A stretch of DNA of 61,146 nucleotides, filler included, from 9 parts of 9 records of this genome joined end to end with filler, not necessarily neighbours in it; one strand, 5' to 3'. Shown: positions 1 through 30,494, numbered from the whole stretch's first letter. Numbers and translations: made by a program. Notes: generated from the letters alone by a model not told the origin.

Positions 1-833
1 GCTTAGAAACGAAGAAACAATCTGATTGTAATAGCCGTATAGGACAAATAGAAAGGAGTATCACGAAAAACACAAGCCTGAATATTCTTAAGAACAAAAG
101 TGCAGAGATTGAAAGAAAGAACAATGAAATTGCGAAGGTTCAAGTAAAGAAGGCAGACCTGCATAAAAAACTCTCTGATAAGGAAAGTAAGTTATTAAAG
201 TTGAAGCAGGACTTACAAAAGGAAGAAGAAAAAGAGCGTAAGAAACAAGCTGTAGCTGAAGAAAGAGAGCGGAAAAGGCTGGTTGAGTTAGAAAAAAAAC
301 AACGAAGAGAGCAGCTATCCTACCAAAAACAATTGCAAGCAGAGATACAGAAAACAAACGATATTGCGGCTGATATTCAGAGCTCAAGAAATCACTCATC
401 AGTGGCATCGAATGCTGAATATGACTTATTTATTTCTCATGCATCAGAAGATAAAGATGGATTTGTACGACCTTTGGCAGAAACACTCGAAAATATGGGT
501 GTCAAGGTCTGGTATGATGAATTTACCCTAAAAGTCGGAGATAGCCTACGTAAAAGTATTGATCATGGTCTTGCAAAATCCAGATTCGGAACAGTGATTT
601 TGTCTTCCGCATTTTGTTCCAAAAATTGGACACAATATGAGCTGGATTCAATGGTTGCAAGAGAAATGAATGGTCATAAAATGATTCTACCTATATGGCA
701 TAAAATCTCCAAAGACGAAGTTATAAATTTTAGCCCTGCGCTTGCTGACAAGGTGGCACTGAATACATCTATAAGTAGTGTTCAAGAAATTTCAGGTGAA
801 CTTGCCAATGTGATTTTGGGTGTTAAAGAATAA
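1..833 (+). CDS. Coiled-coil + C-terminal TIR domain protein (AbTir/TcpB-like putative NADase), 5'-truncated by the window edge
   Basis: The frame is open from position 3 (LETKKQSDC...). A Lys/Glu-rich coiled coil is followed by YDLFISHASEDK, VWYDEF, GDSLRKSID and WTQYELD with the putative catalytic Glu. The TAA stop overlaps the attC R'' box. Confidence 0.9.
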   Translation, partial: LETKKQSDCNSRIGQIERSITKNTSLNILKNKSAEIERKNNEIAKVQVKKADLHKKLSDKESKLLKLKQDLQKEEEKERKKQAVAEERERKRLVELEKKQRREQLSYQKQLQAEIQKTNDIAADIQSSRNHSSVASNAEYDLFISHASEDKDGFVRPLAETLENMGVKVWYDEFTLKVGDSLRKSIDHGLAKSRFGTVILSSAFCSKNWTQYELDSMVAREMNGHKMILPIWHKISKDEVINFSPALADKVALNTSISSVQEISGELANVILGVKE

Positions 834-885
834 CAATAAAATTCAGGGTTCGCAAAAAAAAGCGCCCCTGATTTAAGCGTTCTGT
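828..885 (+). mobile_element. attC-like integron recombination site 1
   Basis: GAATAAC (R'') - 6 nt - ATTCAGGG (L'') ... CCCTGAT (L', one base shorter, giving an extrahelical base) - 6 nt - GTTCTGT (R'); 58 bp. Confidence 0.8.
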
Positions 886-919
886 TTCAATAGATATAAA
901 CTAAATCCAAGGAGTAACA

Positions 920-1927
920 ATGACTGACAACGTAAAAGAAGAAAGTGATGAAGTTACAAAAACTGGAACGCCACTTGTATTCATAAGTCATGATACTCGA
1001 GATGCAAAACTTGCAGAGGCATTTAGTGCGCTTCTTAAAAGTGTTAGTGCAGGGGTTTTAAAGTCATTCCGAACATCAGACAGAAAAGGAAATCAAGGTA
1101 TTGAGTATGGTGTAGAATGGTATCCAGAAATTATTAAAAATATCCAAAATGCTTCTGATGTTGTTTGTCTTCTTACTGAGAGAAGTGTTGATAGACCTTG
1201 GATTCTTTTTGAAGCAGGAATGGCAAAAGGCAAGTTGGAAACTCCTATACTTGGAGTTGCATTAGGCCTATCGTTAAATGATGCTTCTTCTGGTCCATTT
1301 GCTCAGTTTCAAAATTGTGGCGATGATGAAGATTCATTGACAAAATTAGTTTTCCAATTGGTGGATCGTATCCCAAACTCAGAGCCGGATGAAGCTACAA
1401 TAAAATTCCAAGTTGGTAATTTCAAAAAAACTATTGCTGAGATACTACAATCAACCAAAACAGAGCCAGAACAAACATCAACAGAGATTATCAGTAAAGA
1501 CAATTCTTCTGCTAAACTATTTGAAGAAATTAAAGTAATGTTTCAAGATTTACCATCACGTATTGAAAACAATATACGCCCAGATTTTCGAAATAAAAGA
1601 AAACGACGTTTTCATCCAATGATGTTAGAAGAATTAATGCATATGTCTAAAAATAGAAAAATTGGAATTTTAATAGGCTTAAGTTTTCTGAGAGAAGGAA
1701 TGCCGTGGCTGTATGATGTTGGTCTTGAAGCTTTGAATACAATAGATTCAAACTGCAATATAGAAGAAAAAGAACAAGCTGTTTTTGACTTTCAGGAGGT
1801 TGTGAAACTTTCGTCAGGCCCCATAACGGAAGAGTTTTTGGAAACTAAAGAAGATTTTATACTATATGAAAAAATGCCTCATATACTTATTCGAGGAATG
1901 AAAAGATACTTGGAAAGGAAATTATAA
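920..1927 (+). CDS. N-terminal TIR (TIR_2-like) domain protein with an unassigned helical C-terminal region
   Basis: VFISHDTRD, GIEYGVEW, VVCLLT and PWILFEAG (putative catalytic Glu); RBS AAGGAG upstream. Confidence 0.85.
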   Translation: MTDNVKEESDEVTKTGTPLVFISHDTRDAKLAEAFSALLKSVSAGVLKSFRTSDRKGNQGIEYGVEWYPEIIKNIQNASDVVCLLTERSVDRPWILFEAGMAKGKLETPILGVALGLSLNDASSGPFAQFQNCGDDEDSLTKLVFQLVDRIPNSEPDEATIKFQVGNFKKTIAEILQSTKTEPEQTSTEIISKDNSSAKLFEEIKVMFQDLPSRIENNIRPDFRNKRKRRFHPMMLEELMHMSKNRKIGILIGLSFLREGMPWLYDVGLEALNTIDSNCNIEEKEQAVFDFQEVVKLSSGPITEEFLETKEDFILYEKMPHILIRGMKRYLERKL

Positions 1928-1980
1928 AAAGCATTAAGTGCGACGGCAAACGCCGCCACTCCTTATGCTTGGCGTTGGGC
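1922..1980 (+). mobile_element. attC-like site 2 (degenerate R'')
   Basis: AAGCATTAAG...CTTATGCTT inverted repeat with one unpaired base and an internal GC stem, ending in a canonical R' GTTGGGC (1974-1980). The expected AAC of R'' is not intact. Confidence 0.65.
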
Positions 1981-2076
1981 GGCTTGTAGAGACGCCTTCG
2001 AACAACGCCACAACAAGACTAAAGACATCAAACAAGCAATGTTGCAGTAACTGATTACCGGCAAGACGAGGTTAAA

Positions 2077-3858
2077 ATGAACGGTCAACAAATATCTTTG
2101 AAAACTGTAGATGAATTACGAATGGGAGTATCCGGCGAGATCCTGAAGTTTTTTATTCCCGCTTACCAGAGAGGTTTCCGGTGGTCGACGCTTCAAATTA
2201 CACAGCTTCTGGAAGACATCCGTGAGTTCAATAATCGTCGAAATCCACAGCCAGATGAGTTTTACTGTTTACAACCCCTCGTCATCAAAGTTCGCGCAGG
2301 TGGCGATTACGAGGTTGTGGACGGTCAACAAAGATTGACTACCCTGCTTCTTATTCTCCGCCACTTTAATGAACGTCTTGCTGAAAAATACCGGCAGAAG
2401 CTTTTTACATTGGAGTACGAGACTCGTCCAAGCCTATATGGCTTTCTTGATACGCCAAGTGAAGAAGTTGCTAAAGAAAATGTGGATTTCTTTCATCTCC
2501 ACCACGCCATTCAAGCCATCGAGGACTGGTTTCAGCAACGACCAAGTGAAGTTGAGGCAATTAAGGACACCCTACTCAACAAGACAAAGGTAATCTGGTT
2601 CCAGCTCTCCGATTCAGACAATCCGGTGGAAGCATTCACAAGACTCAATGTCGGTAAAATTCCCTTAACGAATGACGAATTAATACGAGCTCTTTTCCTT
2701 CGTCGGTCCGGACCGGAAGAGAAGGAAACCACAAACCAACAACTGCGAATTGCTTATGAGTGGGACCAACTGGAAAAAGCTCTCCAATTCGATGCTTTTT
2801 GGTACTTCTTGAGCAATCAGCCAGGGAAGGTACAAAACCGCATTGGATTTCTTTTTGAACTTGTGGCCAAGGCCGATGGCTTGGCTCCGGGAACGGAAAA
2901 TGACACCTACGGAATATTCTACACATTTAACCAACGTCTGAAAGCGCCTGGTGTCAAGATAGAAGATGAATGGCTTAAGATAAAAAGAAATTTTATGATG
3001 CTGGAAGAGTGGTTTGAGGACCGCGTATTGTACCACATGGTCGGCTTTCTTGTTAGCAAAGGTATGGATATTAACGATATCCGCGAACTATCCATGGATT
3101 GCACTAAAAGTGCATTCCAACAACTCTTGCGCAGTGAAATATTTCGGAGAGCTGTCGGCGATGAAATGCCTTATCCACCGAATGAGCAAGTCATTCGAGA
3201 GCACGTGGAAAACTTATTGGATGATCTTTCTTACTTATCGAATCCATACAAAATTAGATTCATTCTCCTTCTGTTCAACCTGTCAACTTTGCTTCAAAAT
3301 ACATGTTCAAATATGCGTTTTCAATTTGACAGTTTTAAAAATGAGAGGTGGGACATCGAACATATCCGTTCCGTAACCGATGACAGACCCGAGCGGCACG
3401 ATGCGCGGAGGAACTGGCTTAGCAACGGTCTTGAATACCTTAAATCAAAAGGGACAGAAAAAGATTTGTGTTCAGAGATTGATGCCTTTTTAGAGTTATC
3501 ACAGGTTGAAGCGACTAACGAGATTTTTGATCCTCTTTACGAAAAAATACTGGTTTTTTTCAATGAAGAAACGGAGGCTACGGCCGAGCATGGTATATCC
3601 AACCTTACGTTGCTCGATGAACGAACGAATCGAAGCTATAAAAACGCTGTTTTTGCCGTTAAACGTCACCGTGTTTTGACGCTTGACCAAGCTGGGATAT
3701 TCATTCCTCTCTGCACACGAAATGTGTTCTTAAAATGTTACAACCCCTATGTGGACAATCTGATGTTTTGGAGCGAGGAGGATCGTGAAGGGTATGAAGA
3801 GGCGATAACAAAAGCTCTGGTAAACTTTTTTTGCGGAAAAATAGAGGGAATCCAATGA
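2077..3858 (+). CDS. DUF262 + DUF1524/HNH protein (fused GmrSD-like, type IV restriction-like)
   Basis: DUF262 motifs IPAYQRGFRW, VVDGQQRLTT and FTRLNVGKIPLT; C-terminal HNH-type motifs WDIEHI and SNLTLLDERTNRSYKN. Confidence 0.85.
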   Translation: MNGQQISLKTVDELRMGVSGEILKFFIPAYQRGFRWSTLQITQLLEDIREFNNRRNPQPDEFYCLQPLVIKVRAGGDYEVVDGQQRLTTLLLILRHFNERLAEKYRQKLFTLEYETRPSLYGFLDTPSEEVAKENVDFFHLHHAIQAIEDWFQQRPSEVEAIKDTLLNKTKVIWFQLSDSDNPVEAFTRLNVGKIPLTNDELIRALFLRRSGPEEKETTNQQLRIAYEWDQLEKALQFDAFWYFLSNQPGKVQNRIGFLFELVAKADGLAPGTENDTYGIFYTFNQRLKAPGVKIEDEWLKIKRNFMMLEEWFEDRVLYHMVGFLVSKGMDINDIRELSMDCTKSAFQQLLRSEIFRRAVGDEMPYPPNEQVIREHVENLLDDLSYLSNPYKIRFILLLFNLSTLLQNTCSNMRFQFDSFKNERWDIEHIRSVTDDRPERHDARRNWLSNGLEYLKSKGTEKDLCSEIDAFLELSQVEATNEIFDPLYEKILVFFNEETEATAEHGISNLTLLDERTNRSYKNAVFAVKRHRVLTLDQAGIFIPLCTRNVFLKCYNPYVDNLMFWSEEDREGYEEAITKALVNFFCGKIEGIQ

Positions 3859-6260
3859 GCCTTGGCAGCAAACTCATATACAAGGAATTACTTCGGCGGC
3901 ACAAGCGCATCCGGGTTCCAATGATTCAGCGAGATTATGCGCAAGGACGTCCGGAGGAGTCAGAAGTTCGGGAAGAATTTTTGTCTGCTTTAAAAGAAGC
4001 TTTGCAAAAATCGACCGATGATCCGACATTGCCAATGAATCTCGACTTCATTTACGGTAGCGTTGAGGGCGACGAAGAAACCCGTTTCCTTCCTCTTGAT
4101 GGCCAACAAAGATTGACGACTCTATTTCTTCTTCACTGGTATCTTGCATGGAAAGATGACCAGTGGGAAGTCTTTGAGGAACTATTCCAAGCCGATGGCA
4201 AGGCGCGATTTGCCTACAGTGTTCGTCCAAGTAGCAACGAATTTTTTGACGAGTTGGTGAGCTTTCAACCGTCAGTGTCCACGAGCGATGTAGATGATTT
4301 GATCCAGCTGATTACTGACCAGCCTTGGTATTTCCGAAACTGGCGGCTCGACCCGACGATACAGGCCTCACTTTGTATGATGGGGAGTATTCATTATAAG
4401 TTTAGGATGTTATCGGGATTGTTCTCCAGATTGATAGATGAAGAAAAGCCTGCTATAACATTCCAACTGCTTGATTTGGAAAATTTCGGTCTCTCAGACG
4501 ATCTTTACATCAAAATGAACGCACGAGGGAAACCCCTAACAGCCTTTGAGACCTTCAAAGCTCGTTACGAGTTAGAGCTAAAGACGCTATTAGAAGACAC
4601 CTCCTTTAAACTTGGCGGGCAGCATTTTAATGCTTCGGAATATTTCGCTCGTCGAATGGACACAACTTGGGCCGATCTTTTTTGGAAACTACGGGATGAT
4701 GCTAACGACCTTTACGATGATGCTATCATGAATGTCTTTCGGGCCGTAGCGCTTGTTTCTCGCCAACCAAATCACCAAGAATATATTAAGGATGTAAATA
4801 TACTAAGAAATAGGGCTCCCTCATACACCGAATTTAATTCACATGGTTGGCTTGATAAACGCTTTACAATAGTACTCATTTATTTGTTAGATTCGTGGAG
4901 TGGAGATAACAGCAAACTAAATCGTTTACTACCAAATGATCAATTTTTTAATGAAGAATCATTTTTTCAAAAGGTTGTTTCGAATGGAGCAAATCTTGTT
5001 TACACGGAAATTGTTCAAATCGCAGCCTATTCAGCATTCATTGTCAAACATCAGCCCGCCGTTGATTCAAATGTTTTCCAGGAATGGATGCGAATCATCC
5101 TTAATCTTTCCATTAACACTGACTACAACCGTCCATCTGACCTCCAACGCAGTATCCGCGGTTTTGATGAAATGCTTGAGATTTCGGGGGATGTCCTTCT
5201 GCATTTTGAACAAACTGAAAAACCTGCCAGCGGATTTAGTGCTCAGCAAATTGCTGAGGAAAAATTGAAAGCCGAACTGATACTGGCCAATGATGATTGG
5301 AGAACTTTGATAAATCGTGCTGAAGGTCACGGCTACTTTCGAGGCCAGATAGAATTCCTTTTGGACTTTTCCGGGGCGATTGCTGCCAGAAAGACATCAG
5401 AACCAGGGCGATGGGAGGCAGAGAAACATTCGGCTATTCAGGAGAGTTTTTTAAGATATCTTCGCTTGGCAGAAATGATGTTTTCGCCCGATGGCTTAAT
5501 AAATCCCGGTGAATATCGCTGGCAAAGGGCACTGCTTAGTATTGGAGACTACCTGCTGCCTAAAGGTCGTAATGTTTCTTTTCTTGTGAATCCTGCAACC
5601 GATGAGGCGAGTTGGAAACGGCTGCTAAAAGGAACTCGGCGAGGACTCATTGATAAAAGAAAAGTTTTACAGCAGCTATGGGACTGTTTGACGCCGGATG
5701 ACGATATATCTGATCAGCTTGACAAAATCATTAAAGCATCTCAACTGATTAATCCTTGGCGAGATGCATTAATAAATTGTCCTGAGGCTATCGGGTTTTG
5801 TGAGAAAAATTATATCCGTATCGAGAGAGTTAATAAGGTTTATTTACTCAAGAAGACACAGATGAATGGGTATCATGCGGAACTTTTTACTTTTTGCTTG
5901 TATGAAAAGACGCTAAAGAATCTTAAGGAGACTGGGAGGCTGAAGTCACTGAAACTTCTGTCTTATCAGTCGGTTGTTGGTTCTGATATTGAGCCGGGTG
6001 TTTCTATTGTATTTCGTCATGACGACAATGATCTTCGCTTTGAAGTTGAGTACCGTAATGGTCGCTTTCTCATCGAGATACAAAGCGAAAAAGTTACCCC
6101 TTTCCCCATAATCGAATCAATATTGACTAAAAAACTAAATTTCTCAAAGAGGGATTCTTACTACACTCAGGAATCAAGTCCAGATGGTATTGAGGGTTCA
6201 ATCCTTAAATTTGCTGAAGAACTATCAAATTTTCAAAATTTGGAGGAGAATGATGCCTAA
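3855..6260 (+). CDS. DUF262 domain protein with a long unassigned C-terminal region
   Basis: VPMIQRDYAQG, PLDGQQRLTT and YIKMNARGKPLT; the ATG at 3855 overlaps the upstream stop (ATGA); no HNH motif seen. Confidence 0.85.
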   Translation: MSLGSKLIYKELLRRHKRIRVPMIQRDYAQGRPEESEVREEFLSALKEALQKSTDDPTLPMNLDFIYGSVEGDEETRFLPLDGQQRLTTLFLLHWYLAWKDDQWEVFEELFQADGKARFAYSVRPSSNEFFDELVSFQPSVSTSDVDDLIQLITDQPWYFRNWRLDPTIQASLCMMGSIHYKFRMLSGLFSRLIDEEKPAITFQLLDLENFGLSDDLYIKMNARGKPLTAFETFKARYELELKTLLEDTSFKLGGQHFNASEYFARRMDTTWADLFWKLRDDANDLYDDAIMNVFRAVALVSRQPNHQEYIKDVNILRNRAPSYTEFNSHGWLDKRFTIVLIYLLDSWSGDNSKLNRLLPNDQFFNEESFFQKVVSNGANLVYTEIVQIAAYSAFIVKHQPAVDSNVFQEWMRIILNLSINTDYNRPSDLQRSIRGFDEMLEISGDVLLHFEQTEKPASGFSAQQIAEEKLKAELILANDDWRTLINRAEGHGYFRGQIEFLLDFSGAIAARKTSEPGRWEAEKHSAIQESFLRYLRLAEMMFSPDGLINPGEYRWQRALLSIGDYLLPKGRNVSFLVNPATDEASWKRLLKGTRRGLIDKRKVLQQLWDCLTPDDDISDQLDKIIKASQLINPWRDALINCPEAIGFCEKNYIRIERVNKVYLLKKTQMNGYHAELFTFCLYEKTLKNLKETGRLKSLKLLSYQSVVGSDIEPGVSIVFRHDDNDLRFEVEYRNGRFLIEIQSEKVTPFPIIESILTKKLNFSKRDSYYTQESSPDGIEGSILKFAEELSNFQNLEENDA

Positions 6261-6386
6261 GAAAGTTCGACCGGGAACATTACGTGATTCTTAATAATTC
6301 TGGTAATAAGTTCGATTTATGGCCTGTAACAAAATATACTGAAAAATTATAATTCAACTGAATGAGATTTCATAATAGAAAAAATA

Positions 6387-6444
6387 TGCCAACCTATAAA
6401 TCCAGCGGCCCCAAAGGATCGGGCCGCTGATTAAATCGTTATAT
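6387..6444 (+). mobile_element. attC-like site 3
   Basis: TGCCAAC - 6 nt - ATCCAGCGGCCC ... GGGCCGCTGAT - 6 nt - GTTATAT; one extrahelical base in the L boxes; 58 bp with the same geometry as site 1. Confidence 0.85.
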
Positions 6445-6465
6445 GAAACCAATAGGTAATGATGT

Positions 6466-7698
6466 ATGAGAATTTCGACCAATGCTAAAACAGAAAGAAT
6501 TGGTGTTCAAATTGTTGGAGAAAAATTTGAACGATATGGATATATTTTTCGTGAGCAACCGATAAGTGATTATGGAATTGATGCACATATCGAAGTTGTT
6601 AAAGGTGATATCGTAACAGGTCAATTGATTGCAGTTCAAATCAAATCTGGTTCATCTTGGTTTAAGGAAGAAGGCGATGACTGTTACGTTTATAGAGGTG
6701 ACAAAAAGCATCTTGATTATTGGCTTGAGCACTCACTACCTGTAATAGTTGTTTTGTGCGACATCTCGGGTTCTCGATGTTACTGGCAGGCAATAACTCC
6801 ATCGAACATAATCCCAACAGAAAAGGCTTGGAAAATTAACGTACCAAAACTGCAACTTATCAACCCTGGTATGAACATTGATATAGAAAGACTTGTTAAT
6901 AAACTACCTGTTTATAAAAGTTACACAGTCGTTTCTACAGGAGATGTAAGCCTTGGTGCTGCAAAAAGGTATTCCCTTAGAATTATATTAAACCGTGAGC
7001 ACACTCAGGCTGAAATACTAGATGTTATCAAGTCTGCAACATTTGAAGCAATTAACTGTGAATGTCATAGAAATGAAATTAATAGAAAATATTGGCGAAA
7101 AACACCGGCACATGTGGTGTGGCTATTAATTTATCCATCGGCAGAAGATGAAAAAAACAATAATTATATTTGTCGATCTGAATGGTTTTCAGAAATTTTA
7201 AATCCAAAATTTCTTCCCGTATCAAATGGAGGAGAAGAAATTTACCCCAACCTAAGGGTTGATTGGAATAACAACTACCTAACATGGTCAAAGACTCAAG
7301 CAAGTAATACTTCTACAAAAGAATCATTTATCTGTAGAGTAACATCTCTCACAAATCAAACCATGCCTTTAGTTCATCAAGCGGTAAAAACTTTAGACCA
7401 ATATGAAAAATATGAAATAGACTTTTCATATTTAACAAGAATTTTAACTAAAAATTTCAAAAAAATAGACAAACTATATATGAACGGTATTAACATGGGC
7501 CTTGCATCTTATGAGTGCAAAGACCTAAGCACTAAATTTCAGTTAATTATCGCCCATGCTCATAATGTTTATTTGCCATTCAGTGGCATTGGTAAAGGTT
7601 TTGGTTTGGAACAAACAATATTCAATATCAAGAGCCAAGCAAAGTATTATTATGAAATAATTAAAGAGTTTAATTCTGAATTAAAAAAAGCTCAATAA
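6466..7698 (+). CDS. DUF4365 (PD-(D/E)XK-like) N-terminal domain protein with an unknown C-terminal domain
   Basis: TERIGV...FREQPISDYGIDAHIE...AVQIKSG...HLDYWLEHSLPVIVV pattern. Confidence 0.8.
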   Translation: MRISTNAKTERIGVQIVGEKFERYGYIFREQPISDYGIDAHIEVVKGDIVTGQLIAVQIKSGSSWFKEEGDDCYVYRGDKKHLDYWLEHSLPVIVVLCDISGSRCYWQAITPSNIIPTEKAWKINVPKLQLINPGMNIDIERLVNKLPVYKSYTVVSTGDVSLGAAKRYSLRIILNREHTQAEILDVIKSATFEAINCECHRNEINRKYWRKTPAHVVWLLIYPSAEDEKNNNYICRSEWFSEILNPKFLPVSNGGEEIYPNLRVDWNNNYLTWSKTQASNTSTKESFICRVTSLTNQTMPLVHQAVKTLDQYEKYEIDFSYLTRILTKNFKKIDKLYMNGINMGLASYECKDLSTKFQLIIAHAHNVYLPFSGIGKGFGLEQTIFNIKSQAKYYYEIIKEFNSELKKAQ

Positions 7699-7700
7699 CG

Positions 7701-7831
7701 ATTTAACAAACGATTGTAGGGACAGCAAAGGCTTACCTTTTTGTCTGTTTAATATTTTTCAGTCAAACAAAACATTAAGGTCATTTAAAAATATTCGTTT
7801 CCCTTGCTACCCCACAGCTCATACGTTTAAG
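7701..7831 (+). mobile_element. attC-like site 4 (long type)
   Basis: ATTTAAC - 6 nt - TTGTAGGGACAGCAAAGG ... CCTTGCTACCCCACAG - 7 nt - GTTTAAG; 131 bp, starting 3 bp after the gene stop. Confidence 0.65.
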
Positions 7832-7921
7832 CCAGGACTAAAGGATAAATAAGGCCATGGGACATGAAAGTGAATTGTTTTACAATTTTGAATGTGCTGG
7901 TGGAATAGGCTGATAAATAAT

Positions 7922-10288
7922 ATGCAACTTCTTACAACAAAATTTCATATTCCTGGGTTTAATGTTGATGCGACTATTTCCAGGGAGCGGCTAAGCCGTC
8001 TTATTGGTGCTAATTGTTCCATTGTCATTATTTCGGCCCCGGCGGGGTTTGGAAAGACCACATTGTTGAGTGAATGGGTGGGCAATTGCAAGAGCCCGGT
8101 GGCATGGGTGTCCCTTGAAAAAAGTGAGGATGTGCCCGGGGTGTTCTGGAGCTATTTGATCACGGCGGTTTCTTCTGTTTTGGGCGGTTGCGGCAGGAAT
8201 GCCCTTGAGCAGATCAAGTCTTCCGGCGTATCTTCCATTGAAAATATCCTGATCGGTCTGATCAATGAGATCGAGGCGGATGGAACCGGCTTTACCCTTG
8301 TTCTGGATGACTATCATGTTATTTCGGATGGTTTGATTCGTACGGGGATCGAATTTCTGATCGATCATCTTCCTTCCAATATGCGGATCATCATTTCCGG
8401 GCGGGAAGATCCCCGGCTGTCGCTTTCAAAATTCCGTTTGTCGGGGAAGCTGGCCGAGATCCGGGCGGGGCAGTTCCGTTTTAGTGCCGATGAAGCGGAA
8501 GCCCTTTTGAATACGGTCCATGGCCTTGATCTGAACAAGGAAGATATTGCTTCTTTGCGGGATAAGACCGAAGGGTGGATTGCAGGTCTTGCCCTTGCGA
8601 TTCTGTCCATCAAGGAGCAGAAGGACCGGCGGTCGTTTATCAATGCTTTTACGGGAAGCCACCGGTATATCATTGATTATCTGGTGGAAGAGGTGTTGTC
8701 CGGGCTTGGGGCGGATGTCAGGGAGTTTATGCTGAAGATCGCGATCCTTGAGCGGTTTTGTCCTGGGCTGTGCGAGGCTGTTACGGAGAATCCCGAAAGC
8801 TCCGGGATTCTGATGGATATGGAGCAGAGCAATTTGTTTCTGATTCCATTGGACGACCATCGGGAGTGGTTCCGCTATCATCATCTTTTCAGGGAATTCC
8901 TTTTGAAAAATCTCATGGAAACCCATGCCGGTGAAGTGAAGGGGCTCCATGGGAAGGCGTTTCTCTGGCTGAAGGACGAGGGGGGCGGTACGGAAGCTTT
9001 TAACCATGGGGTGCTGGCTGAACAGTACGAGGCGGCGGCGGAGCTTCTGGCGGAGAATGCGCCCGGCTTGATCACGGAATCCGGCGGATATCGGCTGAAG
9101 GGGTTTATTGACCGGTTGCCGGAGGAGAATGTCCGCAATCATCCTGAATTGTGCTGTTATGCCGTGTGGCTGGATGTTCTTGCCGGTGATTTTGGTTCCG
9201 TGGATTATCTTCATCAGGAGGGCTTCAAGGGAAATGAAACGGTTGCCGGGTTTATCTCCTTGATAAAAGGATACCGGTATTTTTACCAGACGGGGGAGTT
9301 TGGAAAAAGTATCAATGAGATAAAGGTGTGTCTTCGGTTGCTGCCGGAGAAAAATGGTTTTGCCCGTGACATGGGAGAACTTGTACTGGGGCTTTCTTTG
9401 CTGTACAGCGGCGATATGCGGTCTGCGTTCGAGTATATTGAAAAAATATCACTGGACGATGAGATGCCTGTTTTGAGGGCCATCTGTTATGCGGACGTGC
9501 TCTATGTGATGGGGAAACTTGGGAAGGCGCTCTCTTTTATCGACAGAACCATTGAAAACGGAATTCGGGTGTATGGGGAAGATCTTATTTCGGAATATGG
9601 TTTCCTTTATATCTTCAAGGGCGATATCCTGCGGGAAATGAATGATATCGGGGGGGCGTTGAAGGCCTGCCGGAGGGGATTGTACCTTGCCCGGAACAAT
9701 GAGTATATCGAAGTCGTTTTTCTGGGAAATCTGATGTATGCGCGGGTGCTTGCGGCGGACAATAACCATGGGGAAGCTGAAAGGGCCATGGCGGTGTCCG
9801 TTGAGGCCGTAAGGGGCAGTTCCAAATGGGCAGAGTTCATGTCAAGGGCCCATGAGGTCAGGATCAAACTTGCCAGTGGCAATGTGGAGGGGGCCGAAGA
9901 ACTGCTGAAACGGATGGTGGATTTCTCAGCCACGGAAGTTCCTTATTATGAATTTCACCAGTATCTGAGCTTTTGCCGGTATTGTCTCCTTAAAGAAGAT
10001 TTTGGGCGGGTGCATGGGATTACGGATGCCATGATCCGGGAGGATCTTCCTGTTAAACGGACCGGGCGGCTGATTGAATGCTATGTGCTCAAGGCGCTGG
10101 CCTTTCATGGGGAGCAGGAGATGGACCGGGCCATTGAAGTTTTGGGGAAAGCCTTTGAACTTTCTGAAAAGGAGGGGCATGTCCGGGTTTATATCGATGA
10201 GGGGGAGGGCATCCAGGCGTTGTTTGCGGAAGCGTTGAAACGGGGGCTTCTGCCGGAGTATCTGAAGAAGTATGTTGACGGGGGTGAA
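7922..10288 (+). CDS. MalT-like ATP-dependent LuxR-family transcriptional regulator, 3'-truncated
   Basis: LLTTKF, SAPAGFGKTT, LVLDDYH, TEGWIAGL, DYLVEEVL and WFRYHHLF motifs; the HTH lies beyond the contig end. Confidence 0.9.
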
Positions 10289-10388
10289 NNNNNNNNNNNN
10301 NNNNNNNNNNNNNNNNNNNNNNNNNNNNNNNNTTAATTAATTAANNNNNNNNNNNNNNNNNNNNNNNNNNNNNNNNNNNNNNNNNNNN
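10289..10388. other. Artificial contig spacer (N44-TTAATTAATTAA-N44). Identical spacers at 17956-18055, 24402-24501, 30276-30375, 35508-35607, 44245-44344, 49640-49739 and 56006-56105.
   Basis: An identical 100-bp linker with stops in all six frames occurs eight times, and genes are truncated at its borders. Confidence 0.98.
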
Positions 10389-10631: not shown

Positions 10632-12860
10632 CTAGGACAGGGTTTTCTTGTCGTGGAGCATGGCTTTTATCTTGTCCAGAAAGTCGGTGGCGGCATCCCC
10701 TGTGGCAATGGAGTCGGTCTCATTCAGGGCTTCAAGCATCTGAATGGCGCTCAGCCGGTTTTCCGCTCCCCGTATCAGCTTGGGAATGGCCGCGATGGCC
10801 CGCTCCTCGTCAAACTGAAGCAGCTTCACCTGCTCGTGCATTTTTTCCTTCAGGTCCACCTCGCTGGTTTTGGTCATGATGTTGTGGATGGTGACAAGTT
10901 TCCGGATATATTTCAGTTCCTCCTGGGTGATGGTGTGGTCCTTTCCGATCAATGCGGCCATCAGCCGGAAGAGTCCCTTGACAAAGCCGCCCTTATCCAT
11001 GGCGGCACGCATTTGCCGCTCCTCCTCTTTCTTTTTTTGCAGGCTCTTCTCCTGCATTTCCTGTTTCAGGGTTTCCTCTTTTTCCGTGATTTCACTGATG
11101 CGGTCTTCAAAGGCATCCCGGATAAAGGGGGTGCCGTAGAGGCTCCTGAAGCAGAACTCCTGGGCGTCGTCCCGGATATCCCGGTAGCTGTCCAAAAGAC
11201 CTGCCCAGGCCTTGGCGTTGCTCTTTTCCAGGGATCGAAACAGGTTGTCCTCGGAGACCTCCCGGCGGCTCTCCTTCACCAGGGGCGCCCAGGCCTTGAA
11301 CGGGGCCATCCAGGGATTTTTGTCTGAAAAGAGATACCGGGACCAGCGAAGGGGGTTGGCCTGCCGCAGCATTTCAGCGGAATATTCCGTTGTCCATAGT
11401 TTGACCCAGGGACTCACAAATGTCTGGTAGCACTCATCGTTGAAGTCTGACACCGCCGATACCACCCGGAAATCCTCTTCCTCCAGGGTGCCGTCGTCCA
11501 GTTCGAGGATTTGGTCCATGGTGCGCTCTTCGAATTTGACGTCGTAGTCGCCGGTTTCAACCGTTTTCTCTCCTTCCGTGATGACCATCTCGTAGAGGCC
11601 CGGGTTCAGGTAGTGCATGAGGTCGATGCTGCCGATGATCTCCTTGTGCTCTTTTTTCGACACCTTGCTCGACACAAAGATACCCAGATGGCCAATGGTC
11701 TGGTGGACCAGGTAGACCACCACCTGACCCTGGCGCTTGATCTCCTCCTCGGATTCCCACACCTTGACGATCCAGTTGAGGGCCTGCTGGGGCGGGGTGA
11801 TGTTGTCGCCGCTGGAGGCAAATACCAGAATCGGTTCCTTGATGTTCTTAAGGTCGATCCGGGTGTTCTCGTCCAGTTCCAGCAGCCCCTGCTCCAGCCG
11901 GTTGCCCACAAAGAGGTTGGCCACGATGAAGTGGATCTCCTCGGAGGTCATGTAGTAGTAGCCGTTCCACCATTTTTCGAAATCCAGGTAGCGTTTCTCT
12001 TCGGTATCCACCTTGGAGTAGACGTTGTACTGTTTGGTCCAGAAGGTGTTGGCCGGGTTCAGATCTTCAAACCCCGCCACCAGGTTGGCCCCGTCAAACT
12101 TACCGTCGCCAAGGTCGCTCCACAGGGAGGCCATCCAGGTGCCGCCGGTAAGGCCGCCCTTGTAGCGCATGGGGTTTTTGCCCTCCACACCGGCCCAGTA
12201 GGAGAGGGGGGAGCCGTTGAACACCAGGGGGCCGGTGATATCGGGCTGGTCGGCTGCGATCAGGGCCGAGGCCCATCCCCCCTGGCAGTTGCCGATGAGG
12301 GCGGGCTTCTCCGCCTCCGGGTGAAGGCGGCGGATCTCTTTGATGAATTTGACCTGGCTGCGCTGGACATCGGCCAGGGTCTGGTCCGGCTCCGGATCCG
12401 GGCGGAAGAGAATAAAATAGACGGGATGGCCCAGGGTCAGGGCGATGCCGATCTCCGAGTCCCGTTTGGACCCGCCGATGCCGGGGCCGTGGCCCGCCCG
12501 TGGATCGACGATGACAATGGGGCGCCGGTTCAATTCGGAAGGCGCTTCGTCCACCTGAACGGTCCGGCGGTCCTCCTCAGTTCTTTCTTGCTTGAACACC
12601 TTTTGTTTCCGGCGATCCCGGATCTTGGCCAGGAGAAAGTTGACAGGCCGGTCAAAGGTCCTTCCATCCATGACCACATCGTAGTCAAAGGTGAGAACCG
12701 GAGGGTTGCCCTTGGCCATGTGCTCATGATAGATGTCCCCCCGTTTTCGCAGGACGTCCATGAACAGGATCGATCTCTGCCATGCATCATCAAGGTATTC
12801 CCATGCGTCGCTGAGAAGGGTTCTGCCTGACGCCTCTGTGCCTGATTGCTGCTGCTCCAT
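10632..12860 (-). CDS. DUF3141 family alpha/beta-hydrolase-fold protein (PHA synthase/depolymerase-like)
   Basis: DPRAGHGPGIGG, GNCQGGW nucleophile box, GSPLSYWAG, GDNITPPQQAL and GHLGIFVS; start placed at the ATG after AGGAGG. Confidence 0.85.
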   Translation of the reverse strand: MEQQQSGTEASGRTLLSDAWEYLDDAWQRSILFMDVLRKRGDIYHEHMAKGNPPVLTFDYDVVMDGRTFDRPVNFLLAKIRDRRKQKVFKQERTEEDRRTVQVDEAPSELNRRPIVIVDPRAGHGPGIGGSKRDSEIGIALTLGHPVYFILFRPDPEPDQTLADVQRSQVKFIKEIRRLHPEAEKPALIGNCQGGWASALIAADQPDITGPLVFNGSPLSYWAGVEGKNPMRYKGGLTGGTWMASLWSDLGDGKFDGANLVAGFEDLNPANTFWTKQYNVYSKVDTEEKRYLDFEKWWNGYYYMTSEEIHFIVANLFVGNRLEQGLLELDENTRIDLKNIKEPILVFASSGDNITPPQQALNWIVKVWESEEEIKRQGQVVVYLVHQTIGHLGIFVSSKVSKKEHKEIIGSIDLMHYLNPGLYEMVITEGEKTVETGDYDVKFEERTMDQILELDDGTLEEEDFRVVSAVSDFNDECYQTFVSPWVKLWTTEYSAEMLRQANPLRWSRYLFSDKNPWMAPFKAWAPLVKESRREVSEDNLFRSLEKSNAKAWAGLLDSYRDIRDDAQEFCFRSLYGTPFIRDAFEDRISEITEKEETLKQEMQEKSLQKKKEEERQMRAAMDKGGFVKGLFRLMAALIGKDHTITQEELKYIRKLVTIHNIMTKTSEVDLKEKMHEQVKLLQFDEERAIAAIPKLIRGAENRLSAIQMLEALNETDSIATGDAATDFLDKIKAMLHDKKTLS

Positions 12861-13086
12861 GTCTTCCTCCTGTGATCTCGTGTTGGCCGAAACTTTAAAC
12901 GTCGTCCATAGCCACCCGGGGCTGACGCTGTGCCCGGCTGTTGACAATAACAAAAAGAAAATCCACGGCCCATGGAAATGCCATGAAACCGGTTCGATGG
13001 TGGTGTGTGCGAATTGTTGGTTATAATTTACGGATTTGATCTGGATGCTTTAATCCTGAAAACTATAGCCAAATTGTGATTTTAAA

Positions 13087-13145
13087 GTCAAGCAAGAACT
13101 CAAATAACTTGTTTGCTTGACACTCCGGTCTGGTTTGTATAGAAG
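13087..13145. promoter_or_regulatory. Putative back-to-back promoters with a 9-bp inverted repeat (GTCAAGCAA...TTGCTTGAC)
   Basis: TTGACA on + at 13117-13122 and TTGACT on - lie inside the inverted repeat, between divergent genes. Confidence 0.4.
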
Positions 13146-13219
13146 TCTAGTCTATTGGTTCCCGGACAGCAGCCCTGCCGGGGAGCCGAGGTCATTTTAA
13201 CCAATCCGGGAGAGTTGTT

Positions 13220-14128
13220 TTGAACCTTGTCGCCCTGATCCTGATCACCGTCTCCGCCGTGATGCATGCCGGCTGGAATCTCCTTGGCAAGCATGAGCAT
13301 CCGGATGCCGCATTTTTCCTGGTTGCCACCTTTTTTGGCAGCCTCATGATGGTGCCCGTGGTGATGTTCTGGTTTCCCTTTCTTCCCGGGATTTCCGTCT
13401 ATGCCTGGCTGCTCACCGCTCTTGGGGGCTTGTTCCAGGCCCTTTATTACGTCACCCTGGCCTTTGCCTATCGCCATGGCGAGATGTCCGTTGCCTATCC
13501 CATTTCCCGCTCCTTCCCCCTGGTGTTGGTGGTGCTGGTCTCCCTGGCCCTGGGCAAGGGGGCGGAGATCTCCGGGCTTTGCCTTGCAGGGGTGGCTGCC
13601 ATTGTGGCAGGAAGCGTTTTGCTGCCCATGGCCCGGTTCCGGGATGTCCGGTTGAAGGCCTACGCCAATCTTTCCTCCCTGATGGCCCTGGTGGTGGCCT
13701 GCACCACGGCCGGCTATTCCGTGGTGGACGATGTTGCCCTTTCCATCCTTGTGCCTGCCCTGGAGGGGGATCTTCAGTTTTGCAGCATCTCTTTGCTGTA
13801 CCTTTTTTTTCAGAACGGTTTTGCCATTTTGTTTCTTGCCCTCATGACCCTTCCCAAGGAAAACGGGCGCAAACGGGTCCGGGAGATCTGGCGCCATCGG
13901 CTCAGGAATACGGTGATTGCCGGCATTGGTGTCACCGCCACCTACAGTCTGGTGTTGATGGCGATGACCGTTGCCGACAACGTCACCTATGTGGTGGCTT
14001 TTCGCCAGATCAGTATCCCCCTTGGCACCGTGCTCGGGGTGCTGGTGCTGAAGGAGCAACGGGCCATGCCCAAGCTGGTTGGGATCTCCGTCATCTCCCT
14101 GGGGCTTGTGTGCGTCGCCCTGGGATAG
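13220..14128 (+). CDS. EamA/DMT family transporter
   Basis: About 10 hydrophobic segments; MHAGWNLLGK, AYRHGEMSVAYPISRS and GVLVLKE motifs. Confidence 0.9.
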   Translation: MNLVALILITVSAVMHAGWNLLGKHEHPDAAFFLVATFFGSLMMVPVVMFWFPFLPGISVYAWLLTALGGLFQALYYVTLAFAYRHGEMSVAYPISRSFPLVLVVLVSLALGKGAEISGLCLAGVAAIVAGSVLLPMARFRDVRLKAYANLSSLMALVVACTTAGYSVVDDVALSILVPALEGDLQFCSISLLYLFFQNGFAILFLALMTLPKENGRKRVREIWRHRLRNTVIAGIGVTATYSLVLMAMTVADNVTYVVAFRQISIPLGTVLGVLVLKEQRAMPKLVGISVISLGLVCVALG

Positions 14129-14154
14129 TTCCCGGGAGCGGCCAAAGGGATTCC

Positions 14155-15636
14155 CTAGGCGTCTAAAATGGCCTTGAGCTCCTGGTCGATGCCTGCCCCC
14201 AGGGCGTTGATGTCGCCGTCGATGTTGCCCCTTTCCGCCCGGTCCAGGAGTCTGAAGAAGAGATCCGTAAGATAGTCGTTGGCCCGTTGGGAGACGCTTG
14301 TTTCCGCCTTGGCAAAGTAGATGGGCGACCCGGGATCCCCCATGCTTCGGAGAATGGTGTGGCAGGCCGCCACCACAAGGGTTGACATCCACCTCACCCC
14401 CTTGTCCACAAAGGTCACCTCTCCCTCGAATCCGAACATGCCGCCTTTGACCAGGCGGCCGGCCTGTTCAAATTCGGTATAGGCCGCGGTGCCCTTGAGC
14501 ACGATTTGGCAGTGGCACAGGAGGTTGGCCGTTCTTTCCAGGCGGTCCAGGAGGGTGTTTGCCATGAGAAAGTCGATGTTGTTCCTGAGGTCCGAAAGGG
14601 TGGCGTCCTGGACAAACATGAGAAACCCCACCTCCGGCTCGATGCCGTGGCGCCGGCACAGCTCGATGGCCCGGGTGCCCTGGGAGGGCCCGCTACTCTT
14701 GTTGATTTTTCCCAGCACCTGGGCTGATCCGCTCTCGATGCCCATGAGAAGCGAGGTGAAGCCCGCTTCCACCAAGTGGTGGAGGAGTTCGTCGTCCAGG
14801 TCCGAGGGCCGGGTTTCCATGCCAAAGGTGATCTTCATGGGCTTGATCAGGTCCATGAGTTTGAGTATCCGCTCTTTTCCCCGTTTTCCGGGCCCGATGA
14901 AGTTGGGATCCGTAAAGTAAAAATCCCTTGCCCCCTTGTCCACAAGGGATTGCATCTCCCGTGCGATCGCTTCCGGGGTGCGGCCCCGCCATAGGGGACC
15001 CTGGTTGTAAAACGAGGGCACGGGACAGAAGCTGCAATGGTTGTAGCAGCCCCGGCTGCCAAGGATGGAAACCGTGCCGTCAAGGGAGGGCCGCAGGGGC
15101 ACCGGGAAGATGTCGGGATTTTTTTCCGGCGGCCGCATTTGGAAGGCGCCGGGCGTCGGGGCGCTGTTCAGGGCCAGTCCCGGAATATGGGTGAGGGACC
15201 CTGTTTTTTCAAGGGTTGCGGCAAGTTCCACCAGGGTGTGTTCAAATTCTCCCACGGCAATGGAGTCCACCGCCTTTGCCGTGGCGAGGATCTCCCGGAA
15301 AACCAGGGTGGGAAAGAAGCCGAACAGGTTGATGTGGCCGGAGAATCCCTTGCTCTTCAGGCGGGTGAAGAGATCGAACAGCTGCGGGGTGTGCTCCCAG
15401 AAGTAGACGGCGTTGACGCACAGCAGGCCGGGATCTAAAGCAAGTATTTCCTGTTCGGCCCTGTCAAAGCTCCATCGTTGGCCGGCAGCGTCCATGAAGC
15501 AGGTGTCAAACCCGTTGGATTCAAGCATGGATGCGGCATAGCCGCCCATGAGGCAGGACCAGAGGGGGGTGTTGGCGATGTCGTTGAACCGTTTTTCCGA
15601 GAGTATTCTTGGGTGTTCGAGTACCAGGATGTTCAT
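14155..15636 (-). CDS. B12-binding domain radical SAM protein
   Basis: SRGCYNHCSFC motif with an N-terminal cobalamin-binding-like region; the start overlaps the upstream stop (ATGA). Confidence 0.9.
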   Translation of the reverse strand: MNILVLEHPRILSEKRFNDIANTPLWSCLMGGYAASMLESNGFDTCFMDAAGQRWSFDRAEQEILALDPGLLCVNAVYFWEHTPQLFDLFTRLKSKGFSGHINLFGFFPTLVFREILATAKAVDSIAVGEFEHTLVELAATLEKTGSLTHIPGLALNSAPTPGAFQMRPPEKNPDIFPVPLRPSLDGTVSILGSRGCYNHCSFCPVPSFYNQGPLWRGRTPEAIAREMQSLVDKGARDFYFTDPNFIGPGKRGKERILKLMDLIKPMKITFGMETRPSDLDDELLHHLVEAGFTSLLMGIESGSAQVLGKINKSSGPSQGTRAIELCRRHGIEPEVGFLMFVQDATLSDLRNNIDFLMANTLLDRLERTANLLCHCQIVLKGTAAYTEFEQAGRLVKGGMFGFEGEVTFVDKGVRWMSTLVVAACHTILRSMGDPGSPIYFAKAETSVSQRANDYLTDLFFRLLDRAERGNIDGDINALGAGIDQELKAILDA

Positions 15637-16964
15637 TGTGCCTCCAGGGGAAGTTTGAGCCGGGAAAAGACCCCTGCCTTGTGGCACCGGGCCTCGAGTT
15701 CGTGGAGAAGATGGGCATGGGGTTCCGGGTTGTGGTACACGGGGTAGAGCAGATCCGTGTCCGGGGAAAGCGCCCCGGATTTGATCAGCCGTTTGGTCAT
15801 GGGCGCACCGGGATAGAGCCGTACATGGTTGAAGATCACCGCCCCCAGGTTACCGGCGTTGGCATGGATCGAAAGGATCCGGTCCAGGGTCTCGATGGTT
15901 TCGGTTCTCTCCAGGTCCCCCTCTCCGGGCAGGTTGAGCAGAAAGTGGCACATGGTGAGGATGCCGTTGTCCGCCGTGACTTTCGCGGCGTCAAAGAGGT
16001 CCTGTTTGGTCATTTGTTTGTTCAACAGTTTCAGGCCGTGGTCCGTGAGGCTGTCCCCCGAGAAATAGATGGCCACGCAGCCTGCCTTTTGGGCAAGCTC
16101 AAGATTCTCCCGGGTGAGGGAGTCCTCCCGGAAGAATCCGGTCCAGGAGAGGTCGAGATTCCGGTTCACAAGTTCCCGGCAGAGGGCCTCAAAGTGCTCT
16201 TGGGGCCGGTTCACCACCGAATCGGTGAAGTGGAAGAGCTTGATCCCGAAGTCCCGGTTCAGGGACGCCATTTCATCCGCAATCTTGGAAGGGCTGCGCA
16301 GGCGCATGCCGCACCCCCCGAGGAAGGGGTAGAGACAGTAGCCGCACCAGAGGTCGCATCCCCGCTTGCCCTCGATACCCACGGCGGCAATATAGGCGTT
16401 GCCCTGGGTGTAGGAGAGGGGCGGGAAGGCGTCCACATCCATGGGCGGCAGCTCGTCCATGGAGAGCCTGGGACCCATGGGGTTTTCCACGATGGCGCCG
16501 TTGTTGCGCCACAGGATTCCGGGGATGGTGCCCGGATCGATCTCCGGTTCAAACAGGCGGGGAAAGATCAGCTCCCCTTCCCCTTTCAGGCCCATGTCCA
16601 GCTCGGGCACCTCTTTCATGAGCCGTTTTGCAAACAGGGAAAAGGCAGGACCCCCGGCCATGATTTTGGCTTCCGGGGCCAGGGTCCTTGCCAGGGCCGC
16701 CCCGGTTTTGAGGGAGGAGAGATAGGAGGCCTGGTGCCCGGCCAGGGGGTCGAGGTTCCGAAACGAGAGGGCAATGGCGTCGGGCCGGAACCCTTGGATT
16801 TTTTCCTTCAGGTCGGGCCAGGGGTCCATGGCGATGTTCATGTCCAGCACCTGCTTGTCGTGATGGGGGGGCAGGGTGCTTGACAGCCTGGACAGGCCTA
16901 ACGGATATACCTTTTCCCCGGCTCCCAGGTGGGAGGTGGGAAGTTGTACCAGCAATATTTTCAT
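15633..16964 (-). CDS. B12-binding domain radical SAM protein
   Basis: YPLGL, MAGGPAFS, KRGCDLWCGYCLYP and FTDSVVN motifs. Confidence 0.9.
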   Translation of the reverse strand: MKILLVQLPTSHLGAGEKVYPLGLSRLSSTLPPHHDKQVLDMNIAMDPWPDLKEKIQGFRPDAIALSFRNLDPLAGHQASYLSSLKTGAALARTLAPEAKIMAGGPAFSLFAKRLMKEVPELDMGLKGEGELIFPRLFEPEIDPGTIPGILWRNNGAIVENPMGPRLSMDELPPMDVDAFPPLSYTQGNAYIAAVGIEGKRGCDLWCGYCLYPFLGGCGMRLRSPSKIADEMASLNRDFGIKLFHFTDSVVNRPQEHFEALCRELVNRNLDLSWTGFFREDSLTRENLELAQKAGCVAIYFSGDSLTDHGLKLLNKQMTKQDLFDAAKVTADNGILTMCHFLLNLPGEGDLERTETIETLDRILSIHANAGNLGAVIFNHVRLYPGAPMTKRLIKSGALSPDTDLLYPVYHNPEPHAHLLHELEARCHKAGVFSRLKLPLEAQ

Positions 16965-16970
16965 CTATGA

Positions 16971-17955: not shown

Positions 17956-18055
17956 NNNNNNNNNNNNNNNNNNNNNNNNNNNNNNNNNNNNNNNNNNNNT
18001 TAATTAATTAANNNNNNNNNNNNNNNNNNNNNNNNNNNNNNNNNNNNNNNNNNNN

Positions 18056-19357: not shown

Positions 19358-19408
19358 GATCAACCTCCTTCACCATAAAAGTTTGAAATGCATCATTGAA
19401 GCATCCGT

Positions 19409-29912: not shown

Positions 29913-30250
29913 CCTCCTGCGGGGCGGAATCCCCTGTGAAAAGTTAATAAGCGATTTTGAAAGGAATTATATACAAGTGTAAGCAAATACTAAAGAGTGG
30001 TCAAGGGAAACCACATTTTATGTGGTTTAAACGGCCTTTGCGTGTTAATAAAAACGATGCGCGCTTGTGATATTTTTATCAATGAAAATTCTGGAAAAAC
30101 ACTTTTTCATGTGACATACTGAGCGCGTCGACAGGTTGCTTTTTTACATATTATTGAATAGATACTGATTTCGAGCTTTGAAATCGATCAAACATCACGC
30201 CTGATTAAATCGAAATGCCGATTTCACAAAGATGATTTACAAAGCAATGA

Positions 30251-30447: not shown

Positions 30448-30494
30448 TTATAGAAATTACAATCTATTTAAATCCTGATTAGGAGCAATGATTT

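Follow-up and report, generated by a model that had tools for sequence, protein, structure and literature searches.

A putative integron cassette array of phage-defence-type genes at a chromosomal locus of the Desulfobacteraceae

Integron cassettes are already published as carriers of phage-defence genes, and the array described here, which occupies the first 7,831 nucleotides of a 61,146-nt stretch of DNA (the window, made of nine parts of nine records of one genome joined end to end with filler), is a further example of them. In Vibrio, sedentary integrons have been presented as antiphage "biobanks" by Darracq et al. (Science 2025) and Getz et al. (Nat Microbiol 2025), and these arrays, as portrayed in PMC12614218, consist of hundreds of mostly small cassettes with an adjacent integrase, IntIA. 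A second setting is that of the bacteriophage resistance integron cassettes (BRiCs) of mobile integrons; the sections of Kieffer et al. (bioRxiv 10.1101/2024.07.02.601719; also Science 2025) drawn on here concern class 1 mobile integrons carried by plasmids from clinical bacteria, whose cassettes were tested against phages. A third is the attC cluster that has no integron integrase (CALIN), for whose origin the cited part of Cury et al. 2016 (PMC4889954) gives secondary-site insertion by an integrase encoded elsewhere or exchange in trans, loss of intI, and rearrangement.

Set beside the Vibrio arrays as that source depicts them, the window array belongs to anaerobic Desulfobacteraceae and has four visible cassettes, which are large. 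It resembles the BRiCs, so far as the sections cited describe them, in that single- and two-gene defence systems, ThsB-like TIR proteins included, are carried as attC-bounded cassettes, and in that relatives of these systems are met away from integrons as well, in some cases beside pseudo-attC sites; unlike those phage-tested plasmid cassettes, the window array is not on a plasmid and is known from sequence alone. Its particular points are a conserved hotspot with full cassette turnover between close relatives, a left junction at GTT without an adjacent integrase, an all-defence content, and the size of its cassettes.

We hold with high confidence that this AT-rich block is an array of attC-bounded cassettes, and we consider it probable that positions 1-7831 are the distal part, at least 7.8 kb long, of a chromosomal cassette array in an uncultured member of the Desulfobacteraceae, a reading that includes the integrase-less (CALIN) form. 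The block holds five co-oriented defence-type genes on the + strand, distributed over four cassettes: two TIR genes, a GmrSD-like DUF262 pair and a DUF4365 gene. Their nature as cassettes is supported by comparative observations: homologues of TIR1 and the DUF4365 gene lie in cassette arrays elsewhere, one of TIR2 stands behind an attC, synteny with related genomes breaks at the R' core of the last site, and these relatives carry different cassettes at the same place. The cassettes, their attC sites (s1 to s4) and the right border are as follows.

Cassette A: from upstream of the window edge to 879, + strand; the TIR1 gene, then s1.
Cassette B: 880-1974, + strand; the TIR2 gene, then s2.
Cassette C: 1975-6438, + strand; two genes (GmrSD-like and DUF262-only), then s3.
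Cassette D: 6439-7825, + strand; the DUF4365 gene, then s4.
Site s1: 828-885, + strand; attC with R'' GAATAAC at 828-834, R' GTTCTGT at 879-885 and crossover G at 879.
Site s2: 1922-1980, + strand; incomplete attC with a hairpin at about 1929-1970, R' GTTGGGC at 1974-1980 and no AAC R''.
Site s3: 6387-6444, + strand; attC with R'' TGCCAAC at 6387-6393, R' GTTATAT at 6438-6444 and crossover G at 6438.
Site s4: 7701-7831, + strand; attC of 131 nt, the last of the array, with R'' ATTTAAC at 7701-7707 and R' GTTTAAG at 7825-7831.
Right border: 7832-10336, + strand; conserved chromosomal flank with a MalT-like regulator gene (7892-10336), outside the array.

A genome scan with the MalT-like protein brought out relatives among metagenome-assembled genomes of Desulfobacteraceae/Desulfobacterium, at amino-acid identities of 88% (G001), 78% (G002) and 62% (G003). 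Nucleotide homology of the window to G001 (90% identity) and G002 (81%) in blastn starts at 7831-7840, within about 12 nt of the R' of s4, and upstream of that point the window has no nucleotide match to either genome. In both of them the MalT-like gene is itself preceded by an attC and by a low-GC array, 9.0 kb long in G001 and 5.5 kb in G002, and these arrays are bordered on the left by a conserved intergenic region of about 400 nt and a divergently oriented formiminotransferase-cyclodeaminase gene. The two left flanks can be aligned as far as ...ATTG/TT and differ beyond it; the opening bases of the first cassette are GTTATGT in G001 and GTTCTGC in G002, and each start is complementary at 7/7 positions to the R'' of its own cassette (ACATAAC and GCAGAAC, respectively).

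The cargo of these arrays is also of the defence type. That of G001 comprises PDC-S06 (1e-252), a 323-aa open reading frame (ORF), a 1071-aa ResIII helicase and a Mrr-type type IV enzyme (6e-65), and that of G002 a defence dGTPase (1e-75), the GajA/GajB pair of Gabija (5e-223 and 7.5e-135) and an 8xMP membrane protein. The defence cassettes are separated by attC sites, one of which scores 59-60 bits with models whose source attCs were unrelated ones from metagenomes. The window, G001 and G002 have the right flank in common and not a single cassette. The original prediction had named, as the arrangement that would speak against it, the same genes in fixed synteny without these repeats in relatives; what the relatives carry is the opposite, other defence cassettes bounded by attC sites. 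Taken together, the two related genomes suggest that the window array most likely fills a conserved hotspot between the formiminotransferase-cyclodeaminase and MalT-like genes. In G001 (L066 3217-9932), three genes, encoding the 323-aa protein, the 1071-aa ResIII helicase and the 587-aa Mrr-type enzyme, lie between two clear attCs with none visible between the genes, and this is possibly a single three-gene cassette of 6.7 kb.

Homologues of the window's cassette genes in other genomes and metagenomes point in the same direction. A metagenome scan with TIR1 gave 65 loci, the window's own contig not among them, with the closest homologue at 78% amino-acid identity. Downstream sequence was read in 24 of the 65, and in 11 of these 24 a canonical RYYYAAC...GTTRRRY site lies directly 3' of the TIR gene, the loci L004/L006 and L009/L011 being near-duplicates. 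Three of the loci (L001, L004 and L010) are multi-cassette arrays in which the first bases of each cassette are the exact complement of its own R'', and L004 and L005 have the same TIR gene and attC and diverge right after the GTT. A TIR2 homologue at a contig end of G395 (87% identity over residues 6-57, and 82% over 56 residues in another comparison) is preceded by an attC whose R'', ACATAAC, is complementary at 7/7 positions to the preceding R', GTTATGT. The end of that contig (G395:C135, L112 ~1640-1696) resembles what we take to be sequencing-adapter sequence, and the homologue is therefore cut by an assembly artefact. A homologue of the DUF4365 protein (39% identity over 206 residues) is the first cassette beside the integrase of a complete integron in G002. 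The DUF262 pair is kept as a two-gene module in the same order, at 31-37% identity, in two other genomes (G067 and G338), where no attC is visible. Among 401 genomes of the class, homologues of TIR2 were found in three and those of the DUF4365 gene and of DUF262 gene 2 in two each, so that the cassette genes appear to be rare in the genomes searched.

The structure of the sites was analysed in the window itself. Four attC-like sites had been proposed from the sequence, each directly 3' of a co-oriented gene and with one extra base in an arm of the palindrome, and both properties were found at all four, the extra base always lying on the 5' (R''-L'') arm. The AAC and GTT inverse cores flanking an imperfect palindrome, claimed for every site, are present at three of the four (s1, s3 and s4), and s2 has R' only. 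The purine/pyrimidine pattern beside the cores (RYYYAAC/GTTRRRY) is loosely kept, and the R' of s4, GTTTAAG, departs from GTTRRRY. When folded as bottom-strand DNA, s1 reaches -9.1 kcal/mol (z -2.2) and s3 -12.2 kcal/mol (z -2.95), and the fold of s4 pairs the R and L boxes. A strict scan, requiring AAC...GTT, at least 8 bp and one bulge in the 5' arm, recovered in positions 1-8000 exactly s1 (9 bp plus the 5'-arm bulge) and s3 (12 bp plus the 5'-arm bulge) on the + strand and nothing on the - strand; the remaining 53 kb of the window gave one further match, and 200 dinucleotide shuffles gave a mean of 0.28 matches, with at least two in 5/200. By themselves, the four sites are suggestive rather than compelling as judged from their sequence.

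Two further AAC...GTT palindromes outside the array look attC-like in crude scans, one intergenic (38380-38462) and one inside an aldehyde-oxidoreductase-like ORF (48216-48377); neither was found by the covariance models described below, and both are taken as chance matches that show the limits of crude scans. An ad hoc attC score (anchored alignment; position weight matrix plus stem) was dropped as non-discriminating: s1 scored 25.5 and the intergenic control at 38380-38462 scored 25.4, and s3 and s4 failed its position-weight-matrix pre-filter.

Against the attC of the Gabija cassette of G002, s1 is identical at 41/59 aligned positions and s3 at 41/60, and s2 is identical at 48/72 aligned positions to the G395 attC, in which the R'' (ACATAAC) is present; each of these values was reached in 0/500 shuffles. 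When the three short window sites and five bona fide attCs were placed on a common R-box/L-box structure, 83.9% of the cells were paired, with seven pairs showing compensatory changes, as against 25-43% in a control with slid partners, a control that is somewhat flattering since the structure was chosen from these same sequences. A 151-nt contig of the probable source sample (depth 2.1) matches 1927-1976 with four differences and diverges directly after the GTT of s2, which appears to be an s2-type site in another context with its break at the crossover; as it comes from the same sample only, it lends weak support.

These observations bear on whether the block might be an ordinary defence island, with hairpins that serve as terminators or arose by chance and with genes that are no integron cassettes. 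None of the four sites (0/4) is terminator-like and none has a T-run, even though the terminator-like count in 1-8000 as a whole is near that of shuffles (9 vs 6.1), as is that of promoter-like sites (24 vs 20.2), both of which would suit an island. Defence genes do cluster in islands without integrons, the DUF262 pair stands without a visible attC in two other genomes, and our home-made covariance models gave no significant match; set against these points are the AAC/GTT cores and 5'-arm extra bases with their similarity to attCs of real arrays, the homologous genes that are cassettes in canonical arrays, the break of homology at R' on the right side and, on the left, the 7/7 match of the relatives' first cassettes to their own R''. 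We therefore consider an ordinary island most improbable.

The covariance models were built without the window sites, R1 from 13 attCs of metagenome arrays and R2 from 29 R1 matches in the loci. RNAalifold found no consensus structure for the 13 known attCs, so the structure was hand-written from column counts; MAFFT alignments of more diverse attCs were set aside as being out of structural register. The models recover a sub-class of attCs (L066:3145-3216 at 59-60 bits, L109:8026-8096 at 35.5 bits, L111:3098-3168 at 31.4 bits), and both are narrow, missing evident attCs elsewhere (0/5 in L010 and 0/3 in L067). With R2, s1 (828-885) is the top match of the whole window on both strands, at 14.4 bits and E 0.48 under this narrow model. 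Rfam gave no match to any of the four sites at its gathering score.

Several results weigh against the interpretation as a cassette array, or against parts of it. The narrow R1 model matched 0/4 window sites at E<=10, and R2 did not find s2, s3 or s4, so that the models, as weak tests, neither confirm nor refute the sites. Site s2 has no AAC core, its R'' position being taken up by the last part of the TIR2 coding sequence, which runs up to the hairpin, and the bottom-strand folds of s2 (-11.8 kcal/mol, z -1.5) and s4 (-13.3 kcal/mol, z -1.2) have unremarkable z values. The complementary cassette ends of the original prediction exist as quoted, but the match is 5/7 for the DUF262 cassette (GTTGGGC vs TGCCAAC) and 6/7 for the DUF4365 cassette (GTTATAT vs ATTTAAC), three positions of each being the fixed core, and that of the TIR2 cassette (B) is not above chance. 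The contigs of the probable source sample contain no joints indicative of excision and no variants, in material where rare excision would not be visible, and a second run gave no cover. In G003, chemotaxis genes and no array lie upstream of the MalT-like gene. The window edge falls inside cassette A, which places the start of the array and any upstream intI outside the window. PDC-S66, the family that TIR1 fits best, is a candidate family and not a validated system.

Some of these results would also suit a fossil array, assembled by an integrase in the past, with sites that have since decayed and cassettes that are now fixed, an explanation that differs from the preferred one only on present-day mobility. 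The missing R'' core of s2, the departure of the s4 R' from GTTRRRY, the imperfect cassette ends, the single arrangement seen in the sample contigs and the lack of an integrase in the 61-kb window are all as it would have them. A decayed core has a precedent, by analogy, in a relative: the attC of the Gabija cassette in G002 (L067 8938-8996) has R'' GTGTAAT, with AAT in place of AAC, and is complementary at 6/7 positions to the cassette start GTTACAC, the site being otherwise intact. A fossil is nevertheless unlikely, for genomes that share 81-90% nucleotide identity in the flanking gene have wholly different cassettes, which implies recent turnover; in addition, both s1 and s3 remain intact and look much like an attC of a relative, an IntI of full length is encoded in a relative, and contigs cannot show rare excision.

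An integrase was also looked for. Six-frame searches with TIGR02249 gave no match at E<=0.001 on the contigs that bear the arrays of the relatives, G001:C973 (63.6 kb) and G002:C15 (333 kb), and tblastn with the IntI of G002 gave best E values of 0.39 in the 61-kb window and of 0.9 in the 41-42 kb surrounding the arrays of those two relatives. That IntI, a full-length integron integrase, is encoded on another G002 contig (C52, L109) as a 469-aa ORF scoring 366.5 bits with TIGR02249 (cut-off 265). Divergent from it runs an array with DUF4365, one unassigned ORF, LmuA/LmuB (3e-117 and 3e-194; Lamassu), two further unassigned ORFs and PDC-M60A/B/C, in which there are several attCs, two of them found by R2; the complete integron lies at L109 100-14770. 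Partial IntI matches stand at contig starts in G001 and G003. Integron integrases are thus present in the lineage, and no integrase seems to accompany the arrays at the MalT-like locus. The integrase match of G003:C33 (L111 23-852) is in two pieces, and the gene is possibly frameshifted or cut; co-oriented genes and an attC on the same strand (3098-3168, 31.4 bits) lie downstream of it. When the attI region of the G002 integron was aligned with the sequence to the left of each of the two integrase-less arrays, the GTT core and scattered columns were all that agreed, and no homology is claimed.

Given that the window is cut inside the array, the block could also belong, as its distal end, to a complete sedentary chromosomal integron with intI and attI upstream of position 1, the relatives not being representative. 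A contig of the probable source sample, which covers window positions 1-8400 at its 11816-20215, does run 11,815 nt further upstream; G002 has a complete integron with defence cassettes in this lineage; and G001 and G003 have partial intI genes at contig starts, so that their arrays are broken by assembly. At this very locus, however, the arrays of G001 and G002 start beside the formiminotransferase gene with no integrase on the contig, and the intI of G002 is on a different contig with a different array. We regard a complete integron as rather unlikely and, by analogy with the relatives, the CALIN as probably the better description. Of the original proposal, a distal end of an integron or CALIN serving as a defence arsenal, the cassette nature is borne out by the comparative evidence, and its second alternative is the likelier one.

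The resemblance to a CALIN lies in at least two co-oriented attCs with promoterless-looking cassettes and, in G001 and G002, in the lack of an intI or intI pseudogene nearby, with an integrase elsewhere in one of the genomes. The window itself has three good attCs and one partial one, and no integrase within 53 kb downstream. It departs from the usual scattered CALIN in that at least three related genomes have such an array at one chromosomal site, its left junction being a conserved GTT, which is more like a sedentary integron; in that s2 and s3 are about 4.46 kb apart, more than the clustering threshold of 4 kb, so that IntegronFinder would probably report two small clusters; and in that all visible cargo of the window array is of the defence type. 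With the sedentary chromosomal integron it shares a lineage-conserved chromosomal location, variable cassettes, related attCs and defence cargo, the difference being the adjacent integrase of that class, which was not found in G001 or G002. The origins that Cury et al. 2016 give for CALINs are not separated by these data.

The genes of the four cassettes were assigned as follows.

TIR1 (cassette A): 3-833, + strand; coiled-coil plus TIR protein, its 5' end (about 26 residues) cut by the window edge.
TIR2 (cassette B): 920-1927, + strand; protein with an N-terminal TIR domain, from Pfam and PADLOC.
Gene 1 of cassette C: 2077-3858, + strand; GmrSD-like protein with DUF262 and a DUF1524-type nuclease domain, from Pfam and motifs.
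Gene 2 of cassette C: 3855-6260, + strand; DUF262-only protein with a long C-terminal region, from Pfam (GmrSD_N, 1.3e-20).
DUF4365 gene (cassette D): 6466-7698, + strand; protein with an N-terminal restriction-endonuclease-like domain and a C-terminal part, from Pfam and PADLOC.

Every domain named in the original prediction, TIR, DUF262/DUF1524, DUF4365 and MalT-like, was confirmed by Pfam. TIR1 matches TIR_2 (1.1e-19) and, in PADLOC, PDC-S66 (8.2e-102, profile positions 27-280 of 282), and its C-terminus matches a ThsB-like profile (5e-51, PADLOC). No match to the ThsA profile was found in the six proteins scanned, so TIR1 is not the ThsB of a canonical Thoeris system (ThsA plus ThsB), and it fits the single-gene candidate PDC-S66 better (8e-102). 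TIR2 scores 30.4 bits with TIR_2 (cut-off 28) and 3e-11 with TIR-TM of PADLOC. Both TIR domains keep a stretch from tryptophan to glutamate, which we take to be the catalytic region of an NADase. The DUF4365 protein matches its Pfam family at 7e-37 and, over its N-terminus, the Aga_REase-type (Argonaute-associated) profile of PADLOC at 6.5e-26.

In cassette C, gene 1 matches GmrSD_N (3.6e-30) and GmrSD_C (3.4e-06), and the motifs DGQQR and WDIEH are visible in its translation. The likely start of gene 2 is the ATG at 3855, which overlaps the stop of gene 1 as ATGA; the ORF finder placed the start at the TTG at 3831. PADLOC matches of the two DUF262 genes were to Orf5, HEC-06 and the N-terminus of SspE-type proteins. 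A GmrSD-type enzyme is marked by DUF262 with DGQQR and a DUF1524 His-Me nuclease, both found in gene 1; gene 2 has the N-terminal domain only, and the pair is thus a predicted variant of the GmrSD-type restriction enzyme. One frame of the leader of cassette C (1981-2076) encodes a short peptide, interrupted by TAA, whose end by eye resembles what we take to be the conserved C-terminus of HsdS; if so, it would be a fossil of the former genomic context of the cassette. Embedding of the DUF262 pair in type I restriction loci elsewhere, which would speak for such an hsdS remnant, was looked for in G067 and G338, and in neither does the pair lie beside hsdS. At 4.46 kb, the cassette of the GmrSD-like pair is large, as is the Gabija cassette of G002 at 2.9 kb.

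The shift in composition noted at the MalT-like gene holds for the window as a whole: GC content is 33-44% up to position 8000, climbs to 50% in the MalT-like gene, which is identified by TPR_MalT of Pfam (6.4e-34), and is 50-65% in most of the remainder. The remaining window consists of ordinary chromosomal genes of the kind found in anaerobic Gram-negative bacteria, among them corrinoid methyltransferases, B12/radical-SAM enzymes, an aldehyde:ferredoxin oxidoreductase-like protein, TolC/RND efflux components and type IV pilus ATPases. A DUF2284-type protein (16971-17915, - strand) has as its best NCBIfam matches selenoprotein models (2.6e-28, far below the cut-off), consistent with an anaerobe that uses selenocysteine. 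Rfam matched a group II intron (domain V/VI) at 30371-30447 on the + strand (48.6 bits, E 1.6e-06), and no reverse-transcriptase ORF was noted close to it; the match sits at the edge of a second AT-rich island (30000-35500, GC 32-35%) that encodes a 1638-aa TPR protein.

The anatomy of the array, its boundaries, its variability between genomes and its domain content are observed; what follows on the action of an integrase in this genome, on expression and on defence activity we infer. The array would begin at the conserved GTT junction and lack its own integrase. The folded bottom strands of the attC sites would be bound by an IntI from another part of the genome and cut between G and TT, and cassettes would be excised as circles and reinserted at the junction site or at attC sites, with the result that the set of anti-phage genes found at this place varies from one related lineage to another. 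Because s2 is without an R'' core, cassettes B and C (880-6438, 5.6 kb) are probably locked together and would move only jointly, if at all. A defence function of the cargo is plausible for all four cassettes, as judged from their domains. The gene products would each work singly: the TIR proteins may be abortive-infection effectors that consume nicotinamide adenine dinucleotide (NAD), the GmrSD-like pair would be a restriction enzyme for modified DNA, and the DUF4365 protein a nuclease.

A more specific proposal, which we offer only tentatively, is that in this lineage the GTT site flanked by the formiminotransferase gene and the MalT-like gene is an orphan attI, a docking site with no integrase beside it, at which an IntI encoded elsewhere builds and turns over an all-defence array in trans, multi-gene systems such as the GmrSD-like pair here and Gabija in a relative included, and that cassette C keeps a fragment of its former context. 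If this were true, the integron machinery would be the builder of a defence island in trans, and cassette C a snapshot of the making of a large cassette.

The array extends the picture of integrons as anti-phage banks that emerged in 2025 from Vibrio and clinical plasmids to anaerobic bacteria of the sulfate-reducer type. It offers a set of compact and delimited candidates for phage defence, namely PDC-S66, the second TIR protein, the two-gene DUF262 module and the DUF4365 protein. The presence of large multi-gene systems, together with the lack of an adjacent integrase in the relatives, bears on the origin of CALINs and on the limit to cassette size. Flanked by the same pair of chromosomal genes, a single locus would hold wholly different defence cassettes in three related genomes.

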